From: Vicinamibacteria bacterium
GTDB lineage: Bacteria > Acidobacteriota > Vicinamibacteria > Marinacidobacterales > Marinacidobacteraceae
Direction: 5' to 3'
Assembly (NCBI GenBank): GCA_963668695.2
Contig: CAXXLQ010000004.1
Coordinates: 2,528,001-2,592,000, forward strand
Length of the DNA: 64,000 bases
Shown here: positions 3,112 through 56,689 of the stretch, in pieces
Layout of the letters: every line of letters starts with the position of its first letter
How positions within the stretch are numbered: position 1 is the first letter of the stretch
Program-made: the position numbers and the translations under genes
Notes under the pieces: model-generated
What the model saw: only the letters and a program-made list of their open reading frames with translations
Databases searched by the model: none
Told to the model about the DNA's origin: nothing

Positions 3112-4048
3112 GTGGGTGCCACGATGCGGACGCGCGAGGAGGCGGCTGGTGATCCCGGCATTCTTCTTGGTCGCGTTGCAACTCGGTGGGTCGCCTACGG
3201 CTGTTGGGTTGTTGCTTCATGGGCCGCGGTCACAGGTGTCGGCTGCGGCGGCAGCGGCGGATCACCGACGGTCCCCGGTCCGGTCGTGTCCCCGGCTCCC
3301 GAGCCTCCGCCACCGGATCCGCCCGAGGCTCCGTCTCCCGGCGTCGTGGTGACCCCGGAGCAACTCGTTCTTGCCGAAGGAGAAACCACCACGCTGAGCG
3401 TACGGTTGGCGACGCCACCGACCGCTCCGGTCACCGTTGCCGCAAGTATCCAGGCCGACGCGGGACTCTTCGCCGAATTCGGCAAGGGCACTCCTCTAGA
3501 GATTGTCCAAGGCGGTCGTTTGGTGTTCGACGCGGATACTTGGGACTCGCAACAGACGGTAAAGGTGGTCGCGCAGCACGATTTCGACAGCGTCGATGAG
3601 CAGGCAGCCATCTACCTGGACACAACGAGTAACGACGCCGCTTATGAAAATCTGCCGCGGCTCAGTCTTCCAGCGCACATCACCGACGATGAGTCGGAGA
3701 ACCTTGGCATCTGGGTGTTCGGCCATAAGTTGTATGGCCCCCCCGAGGGGGAAACGAGGTTTTACGGTGTTTCATTGAGCGGTGAGCCGACCGGCGATGT
3801 GGTCGTAACGGTGGCGAGTAGTGATCCGGGAATCCTTGAGGTCACCGAGGGCGGTGAGCTGCTGTTCACGCCAGGTGACTTCGAGATGCTGCAGTGGTTT
3901 TCCCACTTTCAGGGTCAAGGCAGAACGAGACGCTGTCGCGCAACAACCTATCGTTGAGGAATTTGCCGTGCACTTCCTGTCGGGTCGCGGTGGCGGTGAG
4001 TGCGTCGTGGAGCCCAACCGAATCCGGGTGAGGGTCAGCGATCGCTGA
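3112..4048 (+). pseudogene. Surface lipoprotein with two Calx-beta/Ig-like repeats, frameshifted near 3900
   Basis: Lipobox-like GVGC, Pro-rich linker, repeated EGET..V.L...PT..V.V motif; removing one T at 3898-3901 joins the frame ending at 4048. Confidence 0.6.
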
Positions 4049-9303: not shown

Positions 9304-9876
9304 TTGACCAACGTCATGAATCGTTTTGCCCGTTGCCTCCGGGGCGGCTTTTCGGGGGTGGCGCTCACGGGGTTGTTGCTGGCCGCGCCTTCCGCTTTCG
9401 CGCTGCAAGACGCCGAGCCCACTCGGGTGGCGGTGATCGACATCGACCGTATCGCCCAGGAGTCCGCCAGAGGACAGGCGATGTTCACCGAACTGCAGTC
9501 CCTGCAGGAAGAGATCCTTCGCGGCCGGCAGTCGCGGGAACAGGAAATCCGCGATCTGACGAACCGGGCGCAGTCGCAACTGCTCTCCGCGGAGGCCCGC
9601 GCCGATCTGACCCGCGACATCGAGCGGCGGAACACGGACCTGCAGCGCTGGCTCGAGGACCAGCAGCGCGCGTTCAACGACAAGCAGACCACCGGATTCG
9701 CCTCCCTCGAACAGGCTCTCGGACCGGTGGTGGAAGAGGTGGCCCGCGAGCAGAACATCCAGTTGATTCTCCGGGTGACTCCCGGCCTCACCTTCATCAT
9801 GGATCCCGCGCTCGATATTTCGAGTGAGGTGATCACGCGCTTCAACGCGCTGAGCGACGGCGGGGAAGAGCCGTAG
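9304..9876 (+). CDS. skp: OmpH/Skp periplasmic chaperone
   Basis: Signal peptide, RVAVIDIDRI, coiled coil, DISSEVI; downstream of bamA. Confidence 0.88.
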   Translation: MTNVMNRFARCLRGGFSGVALTGLLLAAPSAFALQDAEPTRVAVIDIDRIAQESARGQAMFTELQSLQEEILRGRQSREQEIRDLTNRAQSQLLSAEARADLTRDIERRNTDLQRWLEDQQRAFNDKQTTGFASLEQALGPVVEEVAREQNIQLILRVTPGLTFIMDPALDISSEVITRFNALSDGGEEP

Positions 9877-9918: not shown

Positions 9919-10485
9919 ATGACACGCTTCGAAGGGCCCCGGCCTCTCCTTGATGAAATCGGGGATGAGATCGGGGAAGATGCGGGTGAGGCGCCTTCCC
10001 GCCTCACCGCGCGCCGGCACGTCCCCGAAGACGAGCCGTTTTTCGCCGGGCACTTTCCGGCGATGCCGGTGGTCCCGGGGGTCTTCATGTTGGAAGCGCT
10101 CGCCGAATGCGCCCGCCGGTCGCTTCCGCCCGGCGCGACGCTTGCATCTGCACCCCTCGTGCGATTCCGCCGCCGCGTTTCTCCCGGGGAAACCCTCGAA
10201 CTCAGCGTAACCCCGACCGGCGGCGAGGGTGACCGGCGCCGGTTCGATGCCGTGGCTTCGGTGGAGGGTCGGGCCGCCGTCCAGGCGACCCTGGAGTTTC
10301 GGGCGGGGACCGGGACTTCGGCCGGGACTTCGGCCGGGACTTCGGCCGGGACTTCGGCCGGGACTTCGGCCGGGACTTCGGCCGGGACTTCGGCCGGGAC
10401 TTCGGCCGGGACTTCGGCCGGGACTTCGGCCGGGACTTCGGCCGGGACTTCGGCCGGGACTTCGGCCGGGACTGCGGAACGATGA
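9919..10485 (+). CDS. fabZ: 3-hydroxyacyl-ACP dehydratase FabZ-like with (TSAG)n tail
   Basis: [24 protein letters not shown] motif; bamA-skp context. Confidence 0.75.
10312..10473 (+). repeat. 12-bp VNTR (GGGACTTCGGCC) x13.5, in frame
   Basis: Perfect tandem copies read directly. Confidence 0.97.
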
Positions 10486-11789
10486 GCTCCGACTTTCAGG
10501 GGCTCGGACTTCTCGATCCGGAAGAACGCCGCGAAGCTTCGCCGCCCCCGGCAGGGAAGGGCGCCCGGCGTCCGTCCGGTGCGCCGCCCTTCCGCCGCCG
10601 CTCGCGCCAGGGGCCGCCGGGGACCGGCGGGCGCGGGTCGGGCTCGCGCCGTTCCGATGCCCGCCCGCTGCTCACCGGCCTGAGCCTTGGCGGGACGCTC
10701 GACGATCTGAGTGGCGTCTCCGTTCGCCGGCGCGCCGCCGTCACCGGGACCTCGGCCGGGTTCCACCTGTTGTTGTTGCTGCTGTTTTTGGGTGGACTCG
10801 TTCCCACCGCCCCTTCGGAGCCGGCCGCCGCGCCGACCGAGGATCCGCTCCTTTACGCCTTCGAGGCGCCGCCGCTCGAGGAGACGCAGCCGCTCGATGC
10901 CGTCATCGAGCCTCCGCCCCCCGCTCTTCTTCCCGAGGAGACGGCTCCGGAGGCTGCCGAAGCGCAGCCGCCGCCGCCAGCCGCCGGCATCGTGATCCCG
11001 GAGGCGCAGATCGCCGCCCCCAACACCGGTTTCCAGAACGATCTGCCCTTTTCCGAGGGCGAGGACGAGGAGTTCTACGTCGATCACGAGATGGGAGAAG
11101 AACTGGCCGCCGAGGATGACCGCAGCGAGGCGACGGACGGCGCGGAGCCGGAATTCGTATCCGAGATTCCGGCTATCGAGGATTCGGCCGAGGCGCTGGC
11201 CGAGCCGGCGCTCCAATCTCCCGGGTTCGGGCTGTCGGAGGGGCCGCTCCAGTTCGACGCCGAGGCATTCCGTCGTCTGATCAACGACCCGGCTGCCGAG
11301 GTGCGGCGGCTCGGTAACGAACTGGCGATGCGGGAGGCGCGCGCCCGGGCCGAGGAGGAACGCCGCAAGCAGGGGGCGCCCACCGACATCTGGCGGTTTC
11401 TCGAGGGCAAGCGCTTCCGGAACCCGGAAGGCGGGCTGGTCTCGAACCGCAACAACACCCTCTACTACGACGACCGGGGCGCCAACCTGGTGCCGTGGAT
11501 CGGCCGCCTCATCGCCGAGGTCCGCCGGAACTGGTACATCCCCTACGCCGCCTCCTACGATCGCGGCCACGTGGCGATTGCGATCAGCGTGCAGCGGAGC
11601 GGGCAGCTCGCCTGGTTGCAGGTAGTGGTCCCGTCGGGGGTGCCCGGCTTCGATAACGCCGCGGTCGGGGCGCTCCGCGGCGCCGAGTTGTTGCCGCTTC
11701 CGGATGACTACCCCGGGGCCGACTTCGAGATCATGCTGGTCTTTTGGTACAACGAACAGCCCTTCGATCTCTTCTCGACGCAGGATTGA
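10482..11789 (+). CDS. TonB/TolA C-terminal domain protein
   Basis: Single TM helix, Pro/Glu-rich linker, C-terminal VRRNWYIP...[14 protein letters not shown]...PLPDDYP. Confidence 0.8.
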
Positions 11790-19720: not shown

Positions 19721-20914
19721 CTACCCCGCTCTGGCTTCCGGCACCATCGCCGTGGCCGGCTCGTCCACCTCCTCCCGGACGGCGTCGTCCCCAGCCCCTA
19801 CGGGGTGGACGCCATCGCCATCCGCGGTTGTCCGCAGCAGTGCGTCTCCGAACGGATCCGGCGCTTGCGGGACAACCTCCATGTCGTGCGTTGCGGTCGC
19901 GACCGCTTCGGGAAACCAACTGTCCCGCGTTCCCTGGTGAATCACGCTCGCCCTGGCGGCCTCCCGGGTGAGAAATACCGCGAACTCGTGCGGGCCGCCG
20001 CTGCGCCAACGCCGCACGGTTTCGGGGAGCGCCATTGGGTGTTCCATCGCTCGATCACCGATCACACAGCCTGGCCGGTAGGTGCGGAGGGCGTTTCCGA
20101 AGACGCTGTATTTCCGCCCGACGCGGTCGGTCAGCGCGTACGTCATGGGACCGGTCAGAACGGCCACGTGGGCAAGCCCGACCGTCCGGTGCGCGAGATC
20201 CCACGCATCCAGCGGGGCCGATTCCGGATTCGTTTCCTGGGGACCCAGTCCGATGCCGAAAACCGGGCGGGTCCGATGCCCGCTCCCGATGAGGTGGATC
20301 AGCCCCTCCACGCCTTCCTCGTTCTGGATGATCCACGGGGCCGGCAGCAGACGCCAGCCGTAGTCCGACAGTCCTGGGGAACGGGTCAGCCAGCGCACGA
20401 TCCCGGGTACCCACAGCGGGGCCGTCCGTTGGCGAAGGTGGCGCTGGGGCGCAAGGAGCGTGGCGCGGAGGTAGCTCGTCGATCCCGAACGGAAGAGGAT
20501 GACGACCGCCTTCCAGGCGGCCAGTCCGGCGTTGGCGCCTGCCTCGAGCGACACGCCGAAATAGCGACTCGCCCCCGCTTCCCGGTCGACGGCTCGTACG
20601 ATGGCGCCAGCCGATCGATGTTGCTCGACATGCAGTCTTTGTCCGTCCGGACGGGAAACCCCGTCGAATGCGGGGGGCAGGGGGCCCACATGCGCCTCCA
20701 GCCAGCGAAGAACCTGATCCCGGGATCGGTCGAACTCGCCGCCCTTCCCGTCCGCCGCGATTTCGGCGGATACCGCCACCGCGGGCCGGAGTTCCGAGCC
20801 GCTCGCGAAAGTGTCCGGCAGCCGCGCCCGGCGGACGCGGGGAGTCTCGATGGCATTCGGATCGAGCCCGGCTTGGTTCCGGGCGGGATCAGGAACGGGC
20901 AGAGAAACGGGCAT
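19721..20914 (-). CDS. Hypothetical protein (accessory islet)
   Basis: 397-aa ORF with GGAG SD; globular-looking core LAHRTVGLAHV...SVFGNALRTYRPG...HP. Confidence 0.75.
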   Translation of the reverse strand: MPVSLPVPDPARNQAGLDPNAIETPRVRRARLPDTFASGSELRPAVAVSAEIAADGKGGEFDRSRDQVLRWLEAHVGPLPPAFDGVSRPDGQRLHVEQHRSAGAIVRAVDREAGASRYFGVSLEAGANAGLAAWKAVVILFRSGSTSYLRATLLAPQRHLRQRTAPLWVPGIVRWLTRSPGLSDYGWRLLPAPWIIQNEEGVEGLIHLIGSGHRTRPVFGIGLGPQETNPESAPLDAWDLAHRTVGLAHVAVLTGPMTYALTDRVGRKYSVFGNALRTYRPGCVIGDRAMEHPMALPETVRRWRSGGPHEFAVFLTREAARASVIHQGTRDSWFPEAVATATHDMEVVPQAPDPFGDALLRTTADGDGVHPVGAGDDAVREEVDEPATAMVPEARAG

Positions 20915-20985
20915 GATGGCTCCTGGGAGAACGGGATGGGGCTCTGGACGAACCGGGTTGTGGTGCGAAAGCGGGAGGTCCTGCG

Positions 20986-21633
20986 TTGAGCGTGCGGATC
21001 GCGGGCGGATCGCTCGCCGGCCGCGTGTTGACCGGGCCGCCGCGTCCCGGGGGGCGACGGGGCACCGCTCCGGACGGAGCCCGGCCGACGGCCGCAAGAC
21101 TCAGGAAGAGCCTCTTCACGGTGCTGTCCGACGAATTGGTCGGGGCTCGAGTGCTCGATATCTGCGCCGGGGTGGGAACGCTCGGCTTCGAGGCGATCTC
21201 CCGGGGCGCTCGTGAGTGCGTGTTCGTGGAACGTTCCCCGCGGATGGCCCGGCTGGTCGAACGAAATGCCGAGCGCCTTGCCGTGGACACCTTCAAGCTG
21301 GTGGTGGCGGATGCGCTTCGCGAACTGCGACGGCTCCGCCGCGCCGGGAGGGGATTCGACGTGGCCTTCCTGGATCCTCCGTGGGAAAGCTGGGAGGCAG
21401 GAACCGGCGTACAGCTGCTCGCCGAGGCCATCGGCCTCGCGCCGCTGGTGGTGGCGGAGCACCGTTGTTCGTGGGTGCCTCCGCTTAGGGTGGCCGCTGG
21501 CGCAGATGACGAGTCGAACCCGGCGATGCCTGCGCCCGCAGGACTGAAGACCCGCACCACGACCGCCGGAGATGGAGCGTTCTCGCTGTACCGGCGGGAG
21601 GGGGCGGCTGAAGAACGGCGCACAATTTCCTAG
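20986..21633 (+). CDS. rsmD: 16S rRNA m2G966 methyltransferase
   Basis: VRIAGG, RPTAARLRKSLF, LDICAGVGTLGFEAISRGA, FLDPPW; precedes coaD. Confidence 0.9.
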   Translation: MSVRIAGGSLAGRVLTGPPRPGGRRGTAPDGARPTAARLRKSLFTVLSDELVGARVLDICAGVGTLGFEAISRGARECVFVERSPRMARLVERNAERLAVDTFKLVVADALRELRRLRRAGRGFDVAFLDPPWESWEAGTGVQLLAEAIGLAPLVVAEHRCSWVPPLRVAAGADDESNPAMPAPAGLKTRTTTAGDGAFSLYRREGAAEERRTIS

Positions 21634-24265: not shown

Positions 24266-24375
24266 ATCGCCGGGTGGGAGAGCAATCGGGCCGGCAATGG
24301 TTCTGGCCGCCCTCGCCCATATGCGTCGTAGAGATCTGCTCTCGGCGGGTTCGTTGCTACGGCGTTCCTATCCCC

Positions 24376-25518
24376 CTAGTTCGAGGGCGGCCACTTTTCC
24401 GGGTTGGTCCGATACGCCTGCCGGGGACTCCGCGGGCTGTCCGGGAACTGGAGTTCCAGTAGACCCGCATCCACCATCGGGCCGAGGTGGCGATGCACCA
24501 GGCTCCGCTGGTGCATCGAGAACCAGCGCGCGAGTTCCTTGGCGGTGGTCCAATCGCGGAGCCGGCAGATGTCCAGGATGAGCGGATGGAGCACCTCCCG
24601 CGACGGGCGCTCGCTGAGTGCCAGGACGGGGCGGTGCAGCACCCTGGGCAGGCCCTTGAGGCGGTCTTCAGGGTTGTCGTGCGGGGCTGGGTTTGGCGCT
24701 GGTTGGGGCGCCGGGTCCACGGACGGCGGTTGGCGGTCGGTTGGTGGGCGCGGGGAAGGCACTGGGTCGGGGGCTGGTGCGGGCTGGTGCGACGAGGGCT
24801 TGGGCGCTTGCTCCGCCGCGGCGTCGTCGGGGGCGGCCCGCGCGTGGGGAGGTTCCGACGGGGCTTCGCCTGGCTCGTCGCCGTGACCGGCAGCCGGGTC
24901 GTTTCGGCGCGGCGCTGGGACAGGCGGCGCTTCACCGGGGATGATTTCGGGGAGGCGCTTCGGCGGTGGCCGCGGGAGGAGTCGCCCATCCGGTGCGGGT
25001 GCATCGTCCGGGACGTCGTCTGGCTCGTCCGATTCGCGGAGTTTGAATTGGGTCGGCCGGTCGGCCTGGAACATTCCGGCCAGGCCGCCCAGGACGGAAA
25101 GGGCTGTCTCCCCGAGATTGGCCAGCGCCGTAATCCGGCCGCCAAAGCGCTGGGCGTCGGCGCCCGCTTTACGGATCTTCGCTTCCGTCTCCCCGCGCTT
25201 GCCGTCGGGATGGCGGAACGCCCTGGCGGCCGCCGAGGCTCTGACGCCGATCTTGCGGATGCCCTGGCCGGCCTTGGCCGCCACCTGCACGGCAGGCTTT
25301 GCTGCTTCGACGACGCGGCCGATCCATGCCGCTCCCGGCCTCGCGTTCTTTTTCGTGAAGTCCCAAGCGTTGGCGAGGCCCGAGAGTAGAAGGCGAACCC
25401 AGTCCAGAGCGCCTCGCAGCCGAGGACGTGGTTTCCGAAGCCAGGCGCGAATGGCTTCGAGTCCAGGCGGTGGCTCTTCCGGCCGCTGGAAGAGAAAGGG
25501 GCGGTTGGAATCCGGCAT
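24376..25518 (-). CDS. Hypothetical protein with C-terminal winged-HTH (Fic-C-terminal-like)
   Basis: ILDICRLRDWTTAKELARWF...HLGPMVDAGLLELQFPDSPRSPRQAYRT matches the wHTH tail seen on Fic and RecG-C/AlbA regulators. Confidence 0.75.
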   Translation of the reverse strand: MPDSNRPFLFQRPEEPPPGLEAIRAWLRKPRPRLRGALDWVRLLLSGLANAWDFTKKNARPGAAWIGRVVEAAKPAVQVAAKAGQGIRKIGVRASAAARAFRHPDGKRGETEAKIRKAGADAQRFGGRITALANLGETALSVLGGLAGMFQADRPTQFKLRESDEPDDVPDDAPAPDGRLLPRPPPKRLPEIIPGEAPPVPAPRRNDPAAGHGDEPGEAPSEPPHARAAPDDAAAEQAPKPSSHQPAPAPDPVPSPRPPTDRQPPSVDPAPQPAPNPAPHDNPEDRLKGLPRVLHRPVLALSERPSREVLHPLILDICRLRDWTTAKELARWFSMHQRSLVHRHLGPMVDAGLLELQFPDSPRSPRQAYRTNPEKWPPSN

Positions 25519-25696
25519 TGCGAAGCTCGTCGACAGTGCGGGCGAACGTATTCGCCGGGAAGCCGGAATGGTTCGTGAAATCGGGCCGTACTGAAGCGAT
25601 TCGGAGGTGTAAGAACTGAGTTACTACGCCCGCAACTTCCGAACGTAATGGGGCGGCTGCCGATACCCGGTCATGATCGCGGGGCCGGATGGGAGC

Positions 25697-27872
25697 AACA
25701 TTTCGCATTACCCGGGTCTGGCCGGGGAACATGTCGCAGTAGCGGGATCGGCTGGAGGGGCACATGTCGCAACAATTCGGATCTGCCGGGAGAACATGTC
25801 GCACTAGTTGGACCGGCTGGATCGGAACATGTCGCAATAGCGGCATCTGCCGGGGAACATGTCGCAGTAGCCGGATCCGCCGGTGAAACATGTCGCACTA
25901 GTTGGATCGGCTGGATCGGAACATGTCGCAATAGCGGCATCTGCCGGGGAACATGTCGCAGTAGCGGGGCCGGCTGGAGCCGAACATGTCGCAGTAGCCG
26001 GATCTTCCGGGGGAACATGTCGCACTAGTTGGACCGGCTGGATCGGAACATGTCGCAATAGCGGCATCTGCCCGGGGAACATGTCGCACTAGTTGGATCG
26101 GCTGGATCGGAACATGTCGCAATAGCCGGATCCCGGGCTCACGCGGGCGGTCACCCCTCTCCCCGCCCGAGGGCTCGTTTCGGCTCGAGCACTATCAGTG
26201 CGTAAAAGTAGGTGTCTCCCAAGTGCGTAAAAGTTGGTGTCTCTTGACAGCTCTGGTTGGATCGGCTGGAGGCGAACATGTCGCAGTAGCCGGATCTTCC
26301 GGGGAACATGTCGCTCTAGTTGGATCGGAACATGTCGCACTAGCCGATGCTGCCCGTGGAACATGTCGCTGTAGCGGGATCGGCTGGGGTCGAACATGTC
26401 GCAGTAGCCGGATCTGGCGGGGAACATGTCGCAGTAGCGGGATCGGTTGGAGCCCTACATGTCGCACTAGCCGGTTCTGCCCGGAGAACATGTCGCACTA
26501 GCGGGATCGGCTGGATCGGAACATGTCGCTTTAGCGGGATCTGCCGGAGGAACATGTCGCAGTAGCGGGATCGGTTGGAGCCGAACATGTCGCACTAGCC
26601 GGATCTGCCCGGGGAACATGTCGCTCTAACGGGATCGGTTGGAGCCGAACATGTCGCAATAGCCGGATCTGCCGGGGGAACATGTCGCACTAGCGGGATC
26701 TGCCGGTGGAACATGTCGCAGTAGCGGGATCGGTTGGAGGAACATGTCGCACTAGCCGGATCTGCCGGGGAACATGTCGCACTAGCGGGATCTGCCGGTG
26801 GAACATGTCGCAGTAGCGGGATCGGTTGGAGCCGAACATGTCGCACTAGCCGGATCTGCCGGGGGAACATGTCGCTCTAGCGGGATCGGTTGGAGCCGAA
26901 CATGTCGCACTAGCCGGATCTGCCGGGGGAACATGTCGCAGTAGCGGGATCGGTTGGAGCCGAACATGTCGCACTAGCCGGATCTGCCGGGGAACATGTC
27001 GCAGTAGCGGGATCGGCTGGGGCCGAACATGTCGCACTAGCCGGATCTGCCGGGGGAACATGTCGCAGTAGCGGGATCGGCTGGGGCCGAACATGTCGCA
27101 CTAGCCGGATCTGCCGGGGGAACATGTCGCAGTAGCGGGATCGGTTGGAGCCGAACATGTCGCACTAGCCGGATCTGCCGGGGGAACATGTCGCAGTAGC
27201 GGGATCGGCTGGAGCCGAACATGTCGCACTAGCCGGATCTGCCGGGGGAACATGTCGCAGTAGCGGGATCGGCTGGAGGCGAACATGTCGCACTAGCCGG
27301 ATCTGCCGGGGGAACATGTCGCAGTAGCGGGATCGGCTGGAGCCGAACATGTCGCACTAGCCGGATCTGCCGGGGGAACATGTCGCAGTAGCGGGATCGG
27401 CTGGAGTCGAACATGTCGCACTAGCCGGATCTGCCGGGGGAACATGTCGCAGTAGCGGGATCGGCTGGGGTCGAACATGTCGCACTAGCCGGATCTGCCG
27501 GGGGAACATGTCGCACTAGCGGGATCGGCTGGGCCGAACATGTCGCAGTAGCCGGATCTGCCGGGGGAACATGTCGCAGTAGCGGGATCGGTTGGAGCCG
27601 AACATGTCGCACTAGCCGGATCTGCCGGGGGAACATGTCGCTCTAGCGGGATCGGTTGGAGCCGAACATGTCGCACTAGCCGGATCTGCCGGGGAACATG
27701 TCGCAGTAGCGGGATCGGCTGGAGCCGAACATGTCGCTCTAGCCGGATCTGCCGGGGAACATGTCGCAGTAGCGGGATCGGCAGGAGCCGAACATGTCGC
27801 AGTAGCGAGATCGGTTGGAGGCGAACATGTCGCAGTAGCGGGATCGGCCGGGGGAACATGTCGCAGTAGCGG
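25697..27872. repeat. Satellite-like tandem array, ~65 units of 30-33 bp in two blocks (~14 and ~51 units)
   Basis: Core AACATGTCGCnnTAGnnGGATC; alternating 31- and 33-bp units give a 64-bp higher-order repeat. Confidence 0.97.
26197..26249 (-). mobile_element. Solo IS21-like transposon end
   Basis: Minus strand begins TGTCAAGAGACACC and carries two 22-bp direct repeats 25 bp apart. Confidence 0.55.
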
Positions 27873-27953
27873 GGCGGGCTCACCGGGAGCGGCGGTGCGT
27901 ATTTCGCCGCGCTGCGCGCGGCGGTGCGTATTTCGCCGCGCTGCGCGCGGCGG

Positions 27954-28021
27954 TGCCGGTCTGAAGACCGGCGGTCCCGTGCCTACGCGCCACCATGCCG
28001 ACCCGGAGGTCGGCGGTCCCT
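27954..28021. repeat. REP-like palindrome pair; related copies at ~2720, ~4203, ~50626, ~58274, ~61822
   Basis: GCCGGTCTGAAGACCGGCGGTCCC and GCCGACCCGGAGGTCGGCGGTCCC hairpins. Confidence 0.7.
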
Positions 28022-28059
28022 TCCCGGCCGGCCCTATCCGGTTCCGTTCCGGACCCGTC

Positions 28060-29085
28060 TCACGGCTGAAGTTGGCAGTGGCGCGCGCCTGCTGCCCCAC
28101 CGGCTGACCCGAACAGGCCTGGGCACTTCGCTGCGACGGTAGCGAAGATCCGGCGGGCGACCTGGGTGTGTTCCGCCTCCGCCGGATGCATTTCCGCTGA
28201 CCCGTCGTCCCCGGTCACCCTGTCCTCCGTCGGCACGACGATGACCCTTCGGCGATGGGCTAGTTCTTCCGATGTCGCGCGCACGATGACCCCGCCAAAC
28301 CTCTGGGACAGCAACTCCAGGACTGCGTCACGATGCTCTGCCGGGATCTCTTTTTCTCCCAGGACGGCGCGGATATGGGGGCCGAACGCTCCGGCGTTGC
28401 CGGGTGCGGGACTCACCACCACGGTATTCGGCGAAAGGGCGTCGCGGGCATTCAGAATGGCCTGGAAGGCCCGCTCGATTCTCTGGAGCGTACTTTTCAG
28501 CCGCTCCTGGTCGACATAGTCCTGAGGCTCCTTGCCACTGCCCGTCCTGAGCAGCAGCGGGTCCAGGGCATTCTCGCCAGCGAGATCGTTTCCACCACCG
28601 GACAGGAGAACGAAGGTGATATTGCCCCCGGACTTTCTCAGGACGTTTGCCAACTGGTGCTGCATCGCTCCGGAAGGCGTCGCTGCGGCTTCGCTTCCCG
28701 ACGCAACCAGATGCAGGACATTCGTCGGCGTCTCGTTGCGCAGCAGACGTACGAACTCCCGAGTGAGACTCGCGTCCGGAAGCGAGCGCCCGGCGCCTCC
28801 GATCGCAACGACGTTGACCCGATCGCCACACTGCCGGAGCATGGAGACGAACAGATCCGGCGATGCCGTAGCGGCGTCGTCGCAGCCGATGTCGACCGCG
28901 TCGGGTGGGGGCAGGGGCGGTGGTGGCGGTGGAGGCGGCGCCGGTGGGGGCACGGGTGGAGGCGGCGGCGGTTCCTGCGGTGGCGACGGCGGTGGTCGCG
29001 GCCCTCGCAGACATGCGGAAACCGCGAATCCGGACAGGGCCGCCGCCAGCGACAACAACATCAGGGTGGCGATGGCTCTCTTCAC
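28060..29085 (-). CDS. Exported SGNH/GDSL-fold protein with Pro-rich linker
   Basis: GGAGG SD + GTG, signal peptide, LLSGGGNDL block III, EMHP block V. Confidence 0.7.
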   Translation of the reverse strand: MKRAIATLMLLSLAAALSGFAVSACLRGPRPPPSPPQEPPPPPPVPPPAPPPPPPPPLPPPDAVDIGCDDAATASPDLFVSMLRQCGDRVNVVAIGGAGRSLPDASLTREFVRLLRNETPTNVLHLVASGSEAAATPSGAMQHQLANVLRKSGGNITFVLLSGGGNDLAGENALDPLLLRTGSGKEPQDYVDQERLKSTLQRIERAFQAILNARDALSPNTVVVSPAPGNAGAFGPHIRAVLGEKEIPAEHRDAVLELLSQRFGGVIVRATSEELAHRRRVIVVPTEDRVTGDDGSAEMHPAEAEHTQVARRIFATVAAKCPGLFGSAGGAAGARHCQLQP

Positions 29086-29550
29086 AGTTCCTCCGCGGCG
29101 GCCGGCAGCGAGCGACCTGGGACGGTATCGGGGTGTGTTTTTCGAAATCAATGCCCGGCATCCCCTCCGGACGGCCTCCCCAGTGCGGTCAACGCGTTGA
29201 AAAGGCGACCCAATTGTGCCGCATTCGACGCAAAGGTGGGGTTCTGTTTTCTCGGTGGCCTTCGGCCATCGGTGCCGGCCTCCGCCGGGAGGACCGGCGG
29301 GCGGTCCCAGGCCGTCCCCGCGGCCAGCCCGACCGGACACCGGGGTTCCCTTCCTCGTCCGCGCATCCGGTCCATTGCCATAGGGCGTCCGCCGCCATAA
29401 AATTCAATGCAGCCCGGCGGGATGTTTGGCCGCCTCGCCTGTGATGCGGCGGCGCTCCGGCCGGGTCTTTCCGTGCGGCAAACGGCGCGAGGGGGAACCC
29501 GTTGTGGTTCCGCGCACTCTCCCCGGCAACCCCTTTCCCGAAGGAAGTTC

Positions 29551-35703: not shown

Positions 35704-35849
35704 ATAGCTCCGCTTCGCGTCGCCCATCGTTGCGCTTCGCTCGAAATACACTCGGGCCAGTTCTCCCGGTGGGGGCTCCTCCCTCGCGCGCCTTGTCAGC
35801 CGGGCGCCTCACCGCTCTCGGTGCTCACCCCACCTTGTCCACGGACTGC
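35673..35849. mobile_element. MITE family A copy lacking its left arm
   Basis: Core and right arm match the copy at 33489-33719. Confidence 0.75.
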
Positions 35850-35880
35850 TAACGCTGACGCCGGACGGAGGAAATCGAAA

Positions 35881-36465
35881 CTGGGAAGCATCAAGCCGGA
35901 TCGCTGGATCCGCCGGATGTCGAAAGAGCACCGGCTGATCGATCCGTTCGTGGACCATCAGGTCGGGCAGGGGGTCATCTCCTACGGGCTGTCCGCCTAC
36001 GGCTACGACATCCGCGTCTCCAACGAGTTCAAGATCTTCACGAACGTTCACACCACGATCGTGGACCCGAAGAACTTCGACGAGCGGAGCTTCGTGGACT
36101 ACAAGGGCGAGGTGTGCGTCATCCCGCCCAACTCCTTCGCACTCTCCAACACGATCGAGAACTTCCGGATACCGCGGAACGTCTACGGCATCTGCATCGG
36201 CAAGTCCACCTACGCGCGTTGCGGCATCATCATCAACGTGACCGGGTTCGACGCCGAGTGGGAAGGGAACGCGACGCTCGAGATCTCGAACACGACCCCG
36301 CTTCCGTGCCGCATCTATGCCGGGGAGGGGATCGCGCAGGTGCTCTTCTTCGAGAGCGACGAGGATTGCGAGGTCAGCTACCGGGACAAGAAGGGGAAGT
36401 ACCAGGGGCAGGAACGCATCACCCTGCCCACGATCCTCGGCCGGGGCTCCGGTTCCGGCACGTAG
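35881..36465 (+). CDS. dcd: dCTP deaminase, copy 1 (CTG start)
   Basis: [45 protein letters not shown]. Confidence 0.95.
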
Positions 36466-38283: not shown

Positions 38284-38331
38284 AGGGCCGTAGCTCAGCC
38301 GGTTAGAGCGCCTGTCCGATAAACAGGAGGG
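38284..38331 (+). pseudogene. 5' two-thirds of tRNA-Ile(GAT), no T-arm
   Basis: TAGCTCAGCCGGTTAGAGCG D-arm; CCTGT-CCGATAA-ACAGG anticodon arm; no GTTCRA T-loop follows. Confidence 0.65.
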
Positions 38332-38384
38332 ACGAGGCGACGCACGGGTTCCGTCTGGTCCGGGTTCACGCCATTCTTTACGAC

Positions 38385-38585
38385 ATGGACGACAACGAAA
38401 TCCTCAATACGGTAGACACGGCCGACATCGACGAGGGCCTCTGCTCCGTCAACCACACTGTCGACTACACGTTTATCAAGTTCGACCGAACTGACGAAAT
38501 CGGCCGGGTCCTGCTTTTCTTCGCGCCCCGTACGACTCAGAACATCGAGGCGTCGGAGTTCACCTATCGGGTCTTCCCGGAGTGA
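38385..38585 (+). CDS. Short hypothetical ORF or gene fragment
   Basis: 66-aa ORF ending 3 nt before the second dcd repeat. Confidence 0.4.
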
Positions 38586-38658
38586 CTTACCGCTCTCGGT
38601 GCTCACCCCACCTTGTCCACGGACTGCTAGCTCTGACGCCGGACGGAGGAAATCGAAA

Positions 38659-39243
38659 CTGGGAAGCATCAAGCCGGATCGCTGGATCCGCCGGATGTCG
38701 AAAGAGCACCGGCTGATCGATCCGTTCGTGGACCATCAGGTCGGGCAGGGGGTCATCTCCTACGGGCTGTCCGCCTACGGCTACGACATCCGCGTCTCCA
38801 ACGAGTTCAAGATCTTCACGAACGTTCACACCACGATCGTGGACCCGAAGAACTTCGACGAGCGGAGCTTCGTGGACTACAAGGGCGAGGTGTGCGTCAT
38901 CCCGCCCAACTCCTTCGCACTCTCCAACACGATCGAGAACTTCCGGATACCGCGGAACGTCTACGGCATCTGCATCGGCAAGTCCACCTACGCGCGTTGC
39001 GGCATCATCATCAACGTGACCGGGTTCGACGCCGAGTGGGAAGGGAACGCGACGCTCGAGATCTCGAACACGACCCCGCTTCCGTGCCGCATCTATGCCG
39101 GGGAGGGGATCGCGCAGGTGCTCTTCTTCGAGAGCGACGAGGATTGCGAGGTCAGCTACCGGGACAAGAAGGGGAAGTACCAGGGGCAGGAACGCATCAC
39201 TCTGCCCACGATCCTCGGCCGGGGCTCCGGTTCCGGCACCTAG
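38659..39243 (+). CDS. dcd: dCTP deaminase, copy 2 (identical protein)
   Basis: Direct repeat of copy 1 at offset 2778 bp. Confidence 0.95.
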
Positions 39244-40925: not shown

Positions 40926-41336
40926 CAGCCGGTGGATAAAGTGGCGTGAGCGCCGAGGCTGGCGAGGCCCAGTTCTCCCGGTGGGGGTCCGGCTGACAAG
41001 GCGCGCGAGGGAGGAGCCCCCACCGGGAGAACTGGCCCGGGTGTATTTCGACCGAAACGCAACGATGAGCGCCGCGAAGCGACGCGGTTCAGCCGGGATG
41101 GATCGCCGGCCGAACGCCGCGTGGGTTTCATCACCGGTTGTTTGGCCGGGATGGATCGCCGGCCGAGCCCCCACCGGGAGAACTGGGCCACGCGGGTTTC
41201 ATTACAGGCTGTTTGGCCGGGATGGATCGCCGGCCGAGCCCCCACCGGGAGAACTGGGCCGCGCGGGTTTCATTACAGGCTGTTCAGCCGGGATGGATCG
41301 CCGCTCGAACGCCGCGTGACTTTGTCCACAGGCTGT
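40925..41336. mobile_element. MITE family A (reverse) with internal 71-bp tandem expansion
   Basis: ACAGCCGGTGGATAAAGT / ACTTTGTCCACAGGCTGT ends. Confidence 0.82.
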
Positions 41337-46415: not shown

Positions 46416-47410
46416 GCAGCCCGCAGACAAAGTCGCGCGGCGTTCGTGCGGCGATCCATCCCGGCCAAACAGCCTGTGGTGGAACCCACGCGGCCCAGTT
46501 CTCCCGGTGGGGGCTCGGCCAGCGATCCATCCCGGCCAAACAACCGGTGATGAAACCCACGCGGCCCAGTTCTCCCGGTGGGGGCTCGGCCGGCGATCCA
46601 TCCCGGCCAAACAACCGGTGATGAAACCCACGCGGCCCAGTTCTCCCGGTGGGGGCTCGGCCGGCGATCCATCCCGGCCAAACAGCCTGTAATGAAACCC
46701 GCGTGGCCCAGTTCCATCCCGGCCAAACAGCCTGTAATGAAACCCGCGTGGCGTTCGGCCGGCGATCCATCCCGGCTGAACCGCGTCGCTGCGCGCCGCT
46801 CGTCGTTGCGTTTCGGTCGAAATACACTAGGTATTCCTCCCTCACGCGCCTTGTCAGCCGGACCCCCACCGGGAGAACTGGGCCTCGCCGGCCTCGGCGC
46901 TCACGCGGGTTCCACCACCGGCTGTTCACCGCGTCGCTTCGCGTCGCTCATCGTTGCGTTTCGGTCGCAATACACGCGGTATTCCTCCCTCACGCGCCTT
47001 GTCAGCCGGGCGCCTCGCCCCCACCGGGAGGACTGGCCGACCTCGGCGCTCACGTGGGTTCCACCACCGGCTGTTCACCGCGTCGCTACGCGCCGCTCAT
47101 CGTTGCGTTTCGGTCGCAATACACCCGGGCCAGTTCTCTGGGGGCTCCTCCCTCACGCGCCTTGTCAGCCGGGCGCCTCGCCCCCACCGGGAGGACTGGC
47201 CGGCCTCGGCGCTCACGCGGATTCCACGACCGGCTGTTCACCGCGTCGCTGCGCGGCGCTCATCGTTGCGTTTCGGTCGCAATACACCCGGGCCAGTTCT
47301 CCCGGTGGGGGCTCCTCCCTCGCGCGCCTTGTCAGCCGGGCGCCTCGCCCCCACCGGGAGAACTGGGCCTCGCCGCTCTCGGCGCTCGCGCCACTTTATC
47401 CACAGGCTGC
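46416..47410. mobile_element. Expanded MITE family A (71-bp and ~150-bp internal tandem units)
   Basis: GCAGCCCGCAGACAAAGT ... ACTTTATCCACAGGCTGC enclosing four core copies. Confidence 0.85.
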
Positions 47411-50625: not shown

Positions 50626-50960
50626 GGAGCGCCGGTCTTCAGGCCCCCACCGGGAGAACTGGCCAGCATCGCCCGCGTAGCGGGCGCAACTCCCATCGCC
50701 CCCCCGAGCCGAAGCGCGAGGACGGCAGTCCCGCTCACCCCACTTCCACGACGTAGCTTCAGGCCCTCACCGGGAGAACTGGCCGGCATCGCCCGCGCAG
50801 CGGGCGAAACTCCCGTCGCCGCCCGAGCAGAAGCGCGAGGACGGCAGTCCCGCTCACCCCACTTCCACGACGTAGCTTCAGGCCCTCACCGGGAGAACTG
50901 GCCGGCATCGCCCGCGCAGCGGGCGCAACTCCCGTCGCCATCCGAGCAGAAGCGCGACGA
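50626..50960. repeat. Three tandem ~120-bp REP-derived units, each with the 18-nt motif
   Basis: CTTCAGGCCC(C/T)CACCGGGAGAACTGGCC at ~50637, 50757, 50876; related unit at 58274. Confidence 0.85.
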
Positions 50961-51002
50961 CGGCCGTCCACTGACTACTTTTGTCACCCCGCGCGGTTAG
51001 CT

Positions 51003-56034: not shown

Positions 56035-56689
56035 ACAGCCTGTGCTGAAACCCAGGCGGCGTTCGAGCGGCGATCCATCCCGGCCAAACAACCGGTGATG
56101 AAACCCACGCGGCCCAGTTCTCCCGGTGGGGGCTCGGCCGGCGATCCATCCCGGCCAAACAACCGGTGATGAAACCCACGCGGCCCAGTTCTCCCGGTGG
56201 GGGCTCGGCCGGCGATCCATCCCGGCTGAACCGCGTCGCTTCGCGGCGCTCATCGTTGCGTTTCGGTCGGAATACACGCGGTATTCCTCCCTCACGCGCC
56301 TTGTCAGCCGGACCCCCACCGGGAGAACTGGGCCTCGCCGGCCTCGGCGCTCACGCGGGTTCCACCACCGGCTGTTCACCGCGTCGCTTCGCGCCGCTCA
56401 TCGTTGCGTTTCGGTCGGAATACACCCGGGCCAGTTCTCCCGGTGGGGGCTCCTCCCTCACGCGCCTTGTCAGCCGGGCGCCTCCCCGGCCTCGGCGCTC
56501 ACGTGGGTTCCACCACCGGCTGTTCACCGCGCCGCTTTGCGGCGCTCGGCGTTGCGCTTCGGTCGAAATACACTCGGGCCAGTTCTCCCGGTGGGGGCTC
56601 CTCCCTCACGCGCCTTGTCACCCGGACCCCCACCGGGAGAACTGGGCCTCCCCGCTCTCGGCGCTCACCCGGGTTCCACCACAGGCTGT
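56035..56689. mobile_element. Expanded MITE family A
   Basis: ACAGCCTGTG ... CACAGGCTGT with TAA on both flanks; same internal tandem units as 46416-47410. Confidence 0.88.

Follow-up and report, generated by a model that had tools for sequence, protein, structure and literature searches.

A phased tandem-repeat array paired with a winged-helix protein gene in Vicinamibacteria and other Acidobacteriota: a candidate two-part chromosomal module

A 64,000-nucleotide stretch of the chromosome of a Vicinamibacteria bacterium (contig CAXXLQ010000004.1, positions 2,528,001 to 2,592,000; this whole stretch is called the window below) contains a 2.2-kb array of 65 tandem repeat units, which lies directly upstream of the gene for P0001, a protein of 380 amino acids with a C-terminal winged helix. 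Arrays with a period of 32 ± 1 bp were found directly upstream of a homologous gene at 24 of 26 related loci, and comparison of the sequences strongly supports the pairing of array and gene. The array is very probably the binding site of P0001, as predicted from its layout and from the way its core sequence changes with the protein. On balance we favour the reading that it serves as a cognate multi-site docking platform for P0001, and that array and gene together form a self-contained two-part module. An earlier reading of the window from its letters alone (the original prediction) had reported the array and proposed such a partnership; here we describe the array, its linkage to the gene, the protein, and the alternatives to a docking platform.

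The repeat array in the window

The features on which the argument rests are as follows.

25696-27872 (+): whole array, with 65 units of 30-33 bp that all have the same orientation
25696..26132 (+): sub-array nearer the gene, with 14 units of 30-33 bp that match the unit consensuses less closely (86.9% identity)
26133..26249 (+, about): interruption, 117 bp of unrelated DNA with the remnant of an insertion-sequence (IS) end; 14 units lie on its gene-proximal side and 51 on the other
26250..27872 (+): distal sub-array of 51 units, preceded by a partial one, with strict 31/33-bp alternation and homogeneous at 26831-27500
25519..25695 (-): leader of 177 bp between the array and the start codon, conserved in the four closest orthologous loci
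24376..25518 (-): gene for P0001, 380 amino acids; its start is 177 bp from the nearest array unit, and the array lies upstream

Tandem Repeats Finder reported a single array (25692-27870, period 64, 34.3 copies, 83% matches, score 2408). The 9-mer ACATGTCGC occurs 64 times in the 64-kb window, always on the + strand and between 25729 and 27856, and is found neither on the - strand nor elsewhere; a degenerate first unit, ACATTTCGC at 25696, brings the total to 65. Most units are 33 bp (27 units) or 31 bp (25) long, with eight of 30 bp, two of 32 bp and one of 24 bp. The remaining two are the last unit and a 164-bp interval, within which the interruption lies. Units of the 31- and 33-bp types follow each other in turn and thereby form a 64-bp dimer, and of 26 two-unit steps in the centre of the array, 21 measure 64 bp and five 63 bp. 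Both the repeat finder and the unit count thus uphold the earlier description of about 65 units in dimeric alternation. The mean spacing over the 63 ordinary intervals is 31.65 bp (standard deviation 1.5), or three turns of about 10.55 bp, which agrees with the proposal that the cores sit on roughly one face of the helix.

Identity to the two unit consensuses is 98.3% at 26831-27500 and falls to 94.4% at 27501-27900, 91.1% at 26260-26830 and 86.9% at 25696-26134. A homogeneous centre with degenerate ends had been described, and the values for the centre and for the edges (98.3% against 87-94%) bear this out. The array is rich in GGATC (60 occurrences, or 27.3 per kb, against 2.17 per kb in the rest of the window) and in CTAG (29 occurrences, or 13.2 per kb, against 0.42 per kb). 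Its G+C content is 0.60-0.65, and no A+T-rich stretch was found in it. There is no other array with a period of 30-34 bp in the window.

Two familiar kinds of repeat were considered and rejected, in agreement with the original prediction. Coding repeats were ruled out by the period, which is not a multiple of three, by the 10-29 stops found in every one of the six frames of the array, and by a flat G+C content across codon positions; open reading frames (ORFs) of 61-132 amino acids within the array begin at an ATG inside the core. The array is also not a CRISPR (clustered regularly interspaced short palindromic repeats) locus, because entire 31/33-bp units recur and no unique sequence separates them. 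No Cas family was found among the 46 ORFs of the window in a Pfam scan, in which Cas3-like_C_2 appeared only as a weak secondary match inside RecG. No tRNA or tmRNA was called in the window.

The interruption, which the earlier reading had missed, contains a 22-bp direct repeat in two copies (26197-26218 and 26222-26243) followed by TTGACA. The same IS end adjoins the arrays at three of the related loci introduced below, L002 (about 9453-9830), L003 (about 3141-3330) and L016 (about 1743-1930), and a diverged form of it occurs at L023 (about 9584). L003 and L016, which belong to one genome, have about 190 bp of near-identical IS-end sequence in common, and the IS end was found against arrays of three different core classes. 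A fixed insertion point of the IS end within the repeat unit was looked for and not seen. Other mobile elements were also seen in or beside arrays: IS21 at L012 and L026, and at L003 a serine recombinase together with an rve integrase. The arrays are thus recurrent sites of insertion.

Linkage and co-variation of array and gene

A scan of one genome per species gave the 26 loci (cited by number, L001 and so on); they lie in Candidatus Marinacidobacterium, Vicinamibacteria and other Acidobacteriota assemblies, some of which hold more than one locus. L007 has a flank of only 92 bp and falls outside the array test, so that 25 loci are testable. At L020 neither an array nor any periodicity was found, and the gene there is frameshifted, with its C-terminal wing disrupted. 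The pairing with the neighbouring winged-helix gene that had been proposed is thus carried by 24 of the 26 loci, and the arrayless L020 has a frameshifted gene. Two arrays are short or degenerate (L006, L008), and two short-read contigs begin inside the array (L010, L013). Because short-read contigs end inside or beside arrays in this way (L010, L013 and L007), the arrays are likely breakpoints in metagenome assembly.

Measured in 25 arrays (those of the 24 loci and of the window), the distance from array to gene start falls between 47 and 229 bp in 23; the exceptions are L002, in which an IS remnant lies in between, and L010. Of the 25 arrays tabulated, 16 have 32 bp as their most frequent unit spacing, and L008 and L011 have 33 bp. 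Six have mixed 31/33-bp spacing (the five class A arrays and L018; the classes are listed below), and L024 has 97 bp per three units. The number of copies per array runs from about 6 to 65.

A genome can carry two to four modules with differing cores. Thus L003, L005, L016 and L020 are all on OZ244986.1, L001, L023 and L025 on OZ252286.1, and L002, L012 and L026 on CBDHFO010000017.1. The original prediction had named the occurrence of similar arrays at random loci as the observation that would speak against it. In the 479 kb of sequence fetched, gene-distant arrays were found only as distal blocks in L003, L016 and L026 and as a block of another class in L012, and all of them are cut off from a proximal array or gene by an IS21 element, by a serine recombinase and rve integrase, or by an IS end.

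Small ORFs with coding repeats of 33 bp (11 residues) were observed just downstream of some family genes (L002, 11410-12563; L008, 11129-11674; L013, 1343-1690). One such ORF gave a weak match to Apolipoprotein (E 3.5e-7, below the cut-off), and behind the one in L002 part of the winged-helix region occurs a second time.

The array cores fall into about eight classes. They are given here with the residue found at position 342 of the recognition helix.

Class A: GCGACATGT in the window and in L001-L003, GCTACATGT in L004; H or Q (H342 in P0001)
Class B: TATCGCACCCAG and variants; K or R
Class C: ATAGACGCATGC; R
Class D: GACGCCGGTGG; R
Class E: GAATGCGGATAGCTG; E
Class F: GCTACTAGTAGC; N
Class G: GTGCATGGAGTTCC; Y or Q
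Class H: GCTGGGTGCAGACG; Q

The extracted unit consensuses (none was extracted for L004, L010 and L018) align in one register, with a common segment, rCCGAyCC on the gene-sense strand, and class-specific cores, several of which contain palindromes of 6-12 bp. The shared register points to a common origin of the units, with later diversification of the cores. The period is held at 32 bp across the classes, and the 31/33-bp alternation keeps 64 bp per two units. The core classes match clades of a tree of the winged-helix domain, in which class B forms a basal grade. Beside residue 342, R343 is invariant and H344 nearly so. Cores thus follow both the winged-helix tree and a single recognition-helix residue, and this co-variation supports the pairing that had been proposed. 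A uniform C-richness of the arrays on the gene-sense strand was also considered as a common property and was dropped, as the skew ranges from -0.37 to +0.13.

The gene neighbourhoods differ between classes, and the array is the only neighbour that all loci share. In class A, the window, L001, L003 and L004 have the same run of housekeeping genes around the module (icd, array, gene, aminotransferase, CoaD, RsmD). Classes B and F have two genes for trypsin-like peptidases downstream, usually with an AAA_14/DUF4143 ATPase. This peptidase neighbourhood therefore occurs with two different cores, and the family protein (48% identical) and its neighbour (47% identical) have diverged in parallel. Classes C, D and G lie amid toxin-antitoxin, restriction, integrase and transposase genes.

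The sole Pfam domain of P0001 is Fic-like_C (PF21247) at residues 327-370 (29.8 bits against a cut-off of 27, E 5.7e-7); the Pfam scan found no Fic catalytic domain in the protein. The best match among solved structures is likewise a Fic protein, 4rgl, with E 0.013 in the profile search and E 0.0077 in Foldseek. In searches of the PDB by profile and by fold, the winged helix obtained generic matches only and the N-terminal domain nothing credible, and NCBIfam and PADLOC gave no family for P0001. Residues 1-150 gave best scores of 0.77 and 0.75 in the ESM Atlas, to unnamed clusters. Z-alpha look-alikes from the fold search were dropped, since the core classes share no alternating purine-pyrimidine runs.

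A structure model built on 73 relatives places the C-terminal winged helix at about 285-375, with a predicted local distance difference test score (pLDDT) above 90 and the recognition helix at 337-350. It is preceded in the model by a disordered, proline-rich linker (residues 148-285) and by four long N-terminal helices (about 14-147, pLDDT 50-70). The N-terminal motif PPGLEAIRAWLRKPRP, around residues 13-32, is almost invariant among the relatives, and the helix at 20-28 reads as amphipathic from its sequence. A database search returned 85 relatives, many of them 43-50% identical over 99% of P0001; the few with a source name are labelled Acidobacteria. In a profile search of 1.84 billion representatives there were 58 matches at E<=1e-30, and beyond these mostly matches to the winged helix only. 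P0118, a protein of 3802 residues, matches the profile at positions 25-85, the N-terminal helical region, in 33 separate stretches; to judge by these matches it is a giant repeat protein of a similar helix.

A neutral satellite, generated by slippage and unequal crossing-over and placed beside the gene by chance, would account for several properties of the array: the homogenised centre and degenerate edges, the variable copy number and the tolerated insertions are the usual signs of concerted evolution. However, an array is present at 24 of the 25 testable loci across about eight diverged classes, and neither a fixed period and orientation nor a matching change in the recognition helix is expected of neutral DNA. 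We therefore regard a chance satellite as very improbable.

A proposed docking platform and its alternatives

In the arrangement that we favour, each 32-bp unit would present a class-specific core of about 14-16 bp, often with a dyad of 6-12 bp (here ACATGT), which the C-terminal winged helix would read, probably as a dimer. The constant segment rCCGAyCC would separate successive cores. Because the cores recur every three helical turns, bound proteins would line up on roughly one face of the DNA and display tens of N-terminal helical domains (up to 65 or more in the window), each held by a proline-rich, flexible tether 100-180 residues long. This would create a large multivalent nucleoprotein body at one chromosomal address. 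Such a body would most likely tether or organise the locus, either through self-association of the N-terminal domains or through binding of a partner or surface by the motif PPGLEAIRAWLRKPRP. Since the array lies just upstream of the leader of P0001's own gene, it would probably also titrate the protein and feed back on its expression.

Not all parts of this proposal are put forward with the same confidence. We suggest tentatively that the array serves to tether or organise the locus and not just to regulate the gene, and we hold this less firmly than the docking platform itself. The centromere-like role named in the original prediction is conjectural as well; no partition NTPase (nucleoside triphosphatase) is linked to the loci, which are chromosomal. 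One could go further and picture a chromosomal addressing system, in which several orthogonal pairs of array and winged helix per genome, with core and recognition helix co-evolved, each build a multivalent body at one locus and position that locus or a motif-bound cargo without a dedicated NTPase; this extension is rather doubtful.

Regulation alone offers a simpler account. The array might be the amplified operator of an autoregulated transcription factor, which it would buffer or titrate, or whose level it would make dependent on copy number in the manner of a contingency locus, with no structural or positioning role. Its place close upstream of the gene (at 47-229 bp in 23 of 25 measured arrays), the conserved leader in between, the wide range of about 6-65 units and a winged helix that resembles those of MarR/ArsR-type regulators in fold are all in line with this account. 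Yet one or two operators would be enough for autoregulation, and arrays are present at all testable intact loci. A simple repressor would need neither the conserved N-terminal domain nor the long tether, and titration needs no conservation of the period across diverged cores. On these grounds we consider regulation alone unlikely.

The array could also act as RNA, transcribed as a sponge or as a processed small-RNA array, with the protein acting on the RNA or on its gene. It is a strand-asymmetric repeat of uniform orientation between two co-directional genes, and when two-dimer stretches of three classes were folded on both strands, some of these 128-nucleotide stretches were more stable than shuffled sequences (z -2.84 for the minus strand of L012 and -2.59 for the plus strand of L025). 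The z values were, however, inconsistent between strands and classes (-0.49 to -2.84 in six folds), and the predicted pairs link neighbouring palindromic cores and do not form a unit hairpin. Rfam gave no match to the array at gathering scores and none at E<=1 over 25300-28200, and promoter and terminator consensus sequences are lacking as well. Conservation of the spacing and of a core matched to the protein across the classes suits the recognition of DNA, which leaves the RNA reading quite improbable.

The best-known cases of a binding-site array beside the gene of its protein come from plasmids, on which such arrays serve as centromeres or iterons. Iteron origins consist of helically phased direct repeats beside the gene of a winged-helix Rep protein that binds them and autoregulates its own synthesis. 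The module described here likewise has phased direct repeats adjoining a winged-helix gene. Unlike iteron and Rep_3-like systems, it has a protein with one winged helix instead of two and no Rep domain, it has no A+T-rich element, and its context is one of housekeeping genes.

The sopC centromere of the F plasmid comprises 12 tandem 43-bp units and adjoins the gene of its binding protein; its unit contains a short inverted repeat bound by one dimer, and the spacer adds no affinity, according to the excerpt of PMC2910045 drawn on here. The 32-bp unit of our array similarly consists of a short dyad core and a spacer, and the array is next to the gene. In contrast to sopC/SopB, the module has no SopA/ParA-type NTPase, is chromosomal, reaches 65 units and occurs as several orthogonal copies per genome, and P0001, unrelated to SopB, has a C-terminal winged helix instead of a ParB-type helix-turn-helix.

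The unit of the TubR-binding repeats is about 12 bp long. As outlined in an excerpt of PMC5016525, tubC is a direct-repeat block upstream of the operon that can be split into blocks, and the TubR dimer, a winged-helix protein, assembles into a filament on these repeats. Repeat blocks upstream and a winged-helix protein are features of our loci, too. There is, however, no TubZ gene here, the similarity in fold is only that of generic winged helices, and TubR lacks the N-terminal helical domain and the long tether of P0001.

In RacA, pSK1 Par and RocS, a winged helix goes together with a region that forms a coiled coil or oligomerises and with an end that is disordered or binds membranes, and these proteins have no dedicated NTPase (from the portion of PMC11500499 consulted). 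The same portion of PMC11500499 describes RacA as binding repeated centromere-like sequences (ram sites) and anchoring DNA to a cell structure, and membrane binding by RocS as needing multivalency. We regard these tethers as the closest functional and architectural analogy to the proposed module, one of analogy and not of homology. The domain order is reversed in P0001, whose winged helix is C-terminal and of the Fic-like_C and not the MerR type, and no MerR, DUF536 or other sequence or profile match of P0001 to the RacA, pSK1 Par or RocS families was found. While the sites of these tethers are dispersed, the module has one dense, phased array. pSK1 Par binds repeats upstream of its own gene.

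The module is thus a member of none of the sopC/SopB, tubC/TubR, RacA, pSK1 Par or RocS systems. With respect to plasmid-type partition (types I-III), an adjacent tandem-repeat array, with binding predicted, is present in the window and at 24 of the 26 loci, and neither a linked NTPase nor a plasmid or phage replicon was found. These findings bear on a further alternative, in which the array would be left over from a mobile replicon: a plasmid or island would have integrated, and its centromere or iteron origin would have stayed behind together with the protein that binds it. An array next to the gene of its binding protein is what plasmid partition and iteron systems typically show, and the neighbourhoods of classes C, D and G, with their toxin-antitoxin, restriction, integrase and transposase genes, would suit such an origin. 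Against this, class A is embedded in housekeeping genes of conserved order (window, L001, L003, L004). No ParA, ParM, TubZ or Rep family was found among the 119 ORFs flanking the 26 loci or the 46 ORFs of the window; the ATPases present in these two sets are AAA_14/DUF4143, IstB, AAA_16, ClpB and ABC. A tblastn search with P0001 gave no match in 72,556 plasmid and 50,697 phage records, and the array, at a G+C content of 0.60-0.65, has no A+T-rich stretch. A mobile origin is accordingly hardly probable.

Several observations weigh against the docking platform or limit what can be built on it. The linkage was counted as arrays given a gene, within the fetched loci. Both linkage and co-variation are also expected of co-inherited neighbours, since the core classes follow phylogeny. 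Frameshifted family genes, each seen as two overlapping ORFs, occur at L011, L017, L018 and L020; these are either pseudogenes or assembly errors, and three of the four still have arrays, only L020 being without one. Array length and continuity appear not to be tightly constrained, because copy number varies from about 6 to 65 and insertion elements are present. In a consensus scan of 24300-28400 there were no sigma-70-like promoters and no intrinsic terminators. The N-terminal fold is uncertain in the model, with its pLDDT of 50-70. Finally, the conservation of the three-turn spacing despite a disordered linker of 100-180 residues is unexplained, as is the role of the constant segment.

No published description of such arrays was found, as judged by titles and the openings of abstracts, nor any literature naming Marinacidobacterium. 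The earlier suggestion of an undescribed two-part system fits this search. The logic of plasmid binding-site arrays would here be found on chromosomes and in an uncharacterised protein family; the module lacks a motor protein, has as many as 65 phased sites, and is present in several distinct versions in a genome. If the predicted binding is true, the modules constitute a natural set of orthogonal protein-DNA address pairs in which the likely specificity residue is already visible, and they would provide a direct handle on how loci are organised or marked in uncultured Acidobacteriota. If the addressing reading is true as well, the module would be a new device for organising bacterial chromosomes or for hitch-hiking on them, and no variant of plasmid partition. 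A practical point for annotation is that the arrays could be mistaken for CRISPR-like repeats.

Surroundings of the locus and other features of the window

The window is part of a core chromosome of high G+C content (0.59-0.74 in 1-kb steps), with the gene order ClpB, BamA, Skp, MiaA, RecG, RsmD, CoaD, aminotransferase, the locus, icd, mdh, sucC and sucD. The array is flanked by two co-directional minus-strand genes, that of P0001 and a gene upstream of the array. The sequence of the leader of the P0001 gene is kept in the window, L001, L002 and L003; a sigma-70 consensus was not found in it, and presumably it carries the promoter. Two further features lie beyond the distal end of the array.

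27889..27956 (+): perfect 29-bp repeat in 2.3 copies, then hairpins rich in G+C that have no T run; the distal array end is on one side and the upstream gene on the other
28060..29340 (-): upstream co-directional gene for a conserved protein of 426 amino acids, a context gene

In the 426-residue protein, a signal- or lipobox-like N-terminus (read from the alignment) is accompanied by a proline run, and there is a weak GDSL-like match. Its identity to the product of the syntenic ORF in L001 is 78%, and L004 has the protein too. Its gene is context and not a part of the module in other classes.

The window contains a second family of repeats, unrelated to the array. The 15-mer CACCGGGAGAACTGG occurs 36 times (with up to one mismatch) on both strands, against 0.11 occurrences expected, and is mostly intergenic. 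The family spans 2914-58311, for example at 41116-41303, 46449-47366, 50637-50969 and 56068-56625, and its copies are often part of bigger tandem units (71, 119, 148 or 163 bp). The family resembles elements of the REP (repetitive extragenic palindromic) or MITE (miniature inverted-repeat transposable element) type.

Two dCTP deaminase genes (35704-36465 and 38416-39243) lie about 2 kb apart and are identical at 215 of 217 aligned residues. The DNA between them has a lower G+C content, and a borderline Rfam match to tRNA (38284-38363, 30 bits against 29) was not called by ARAGORN. The pair may be the result of a recent duplication or insertion. About 110 bp at the start of the RsmD gene are shared with the ORF at 19721-21097 (-), for which PADLOC gave a match to the candidate defence family HEC-07 (E 2.1e-41) and Pfam no family. 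Lastly, a 12-bp repeat in 14 copies (10310-10477, 99% matches) is located inside the ORF at 10233-11789, which has a terminal TonB C-terminal domain; it is presumably a coding tetrapeptide repeat.

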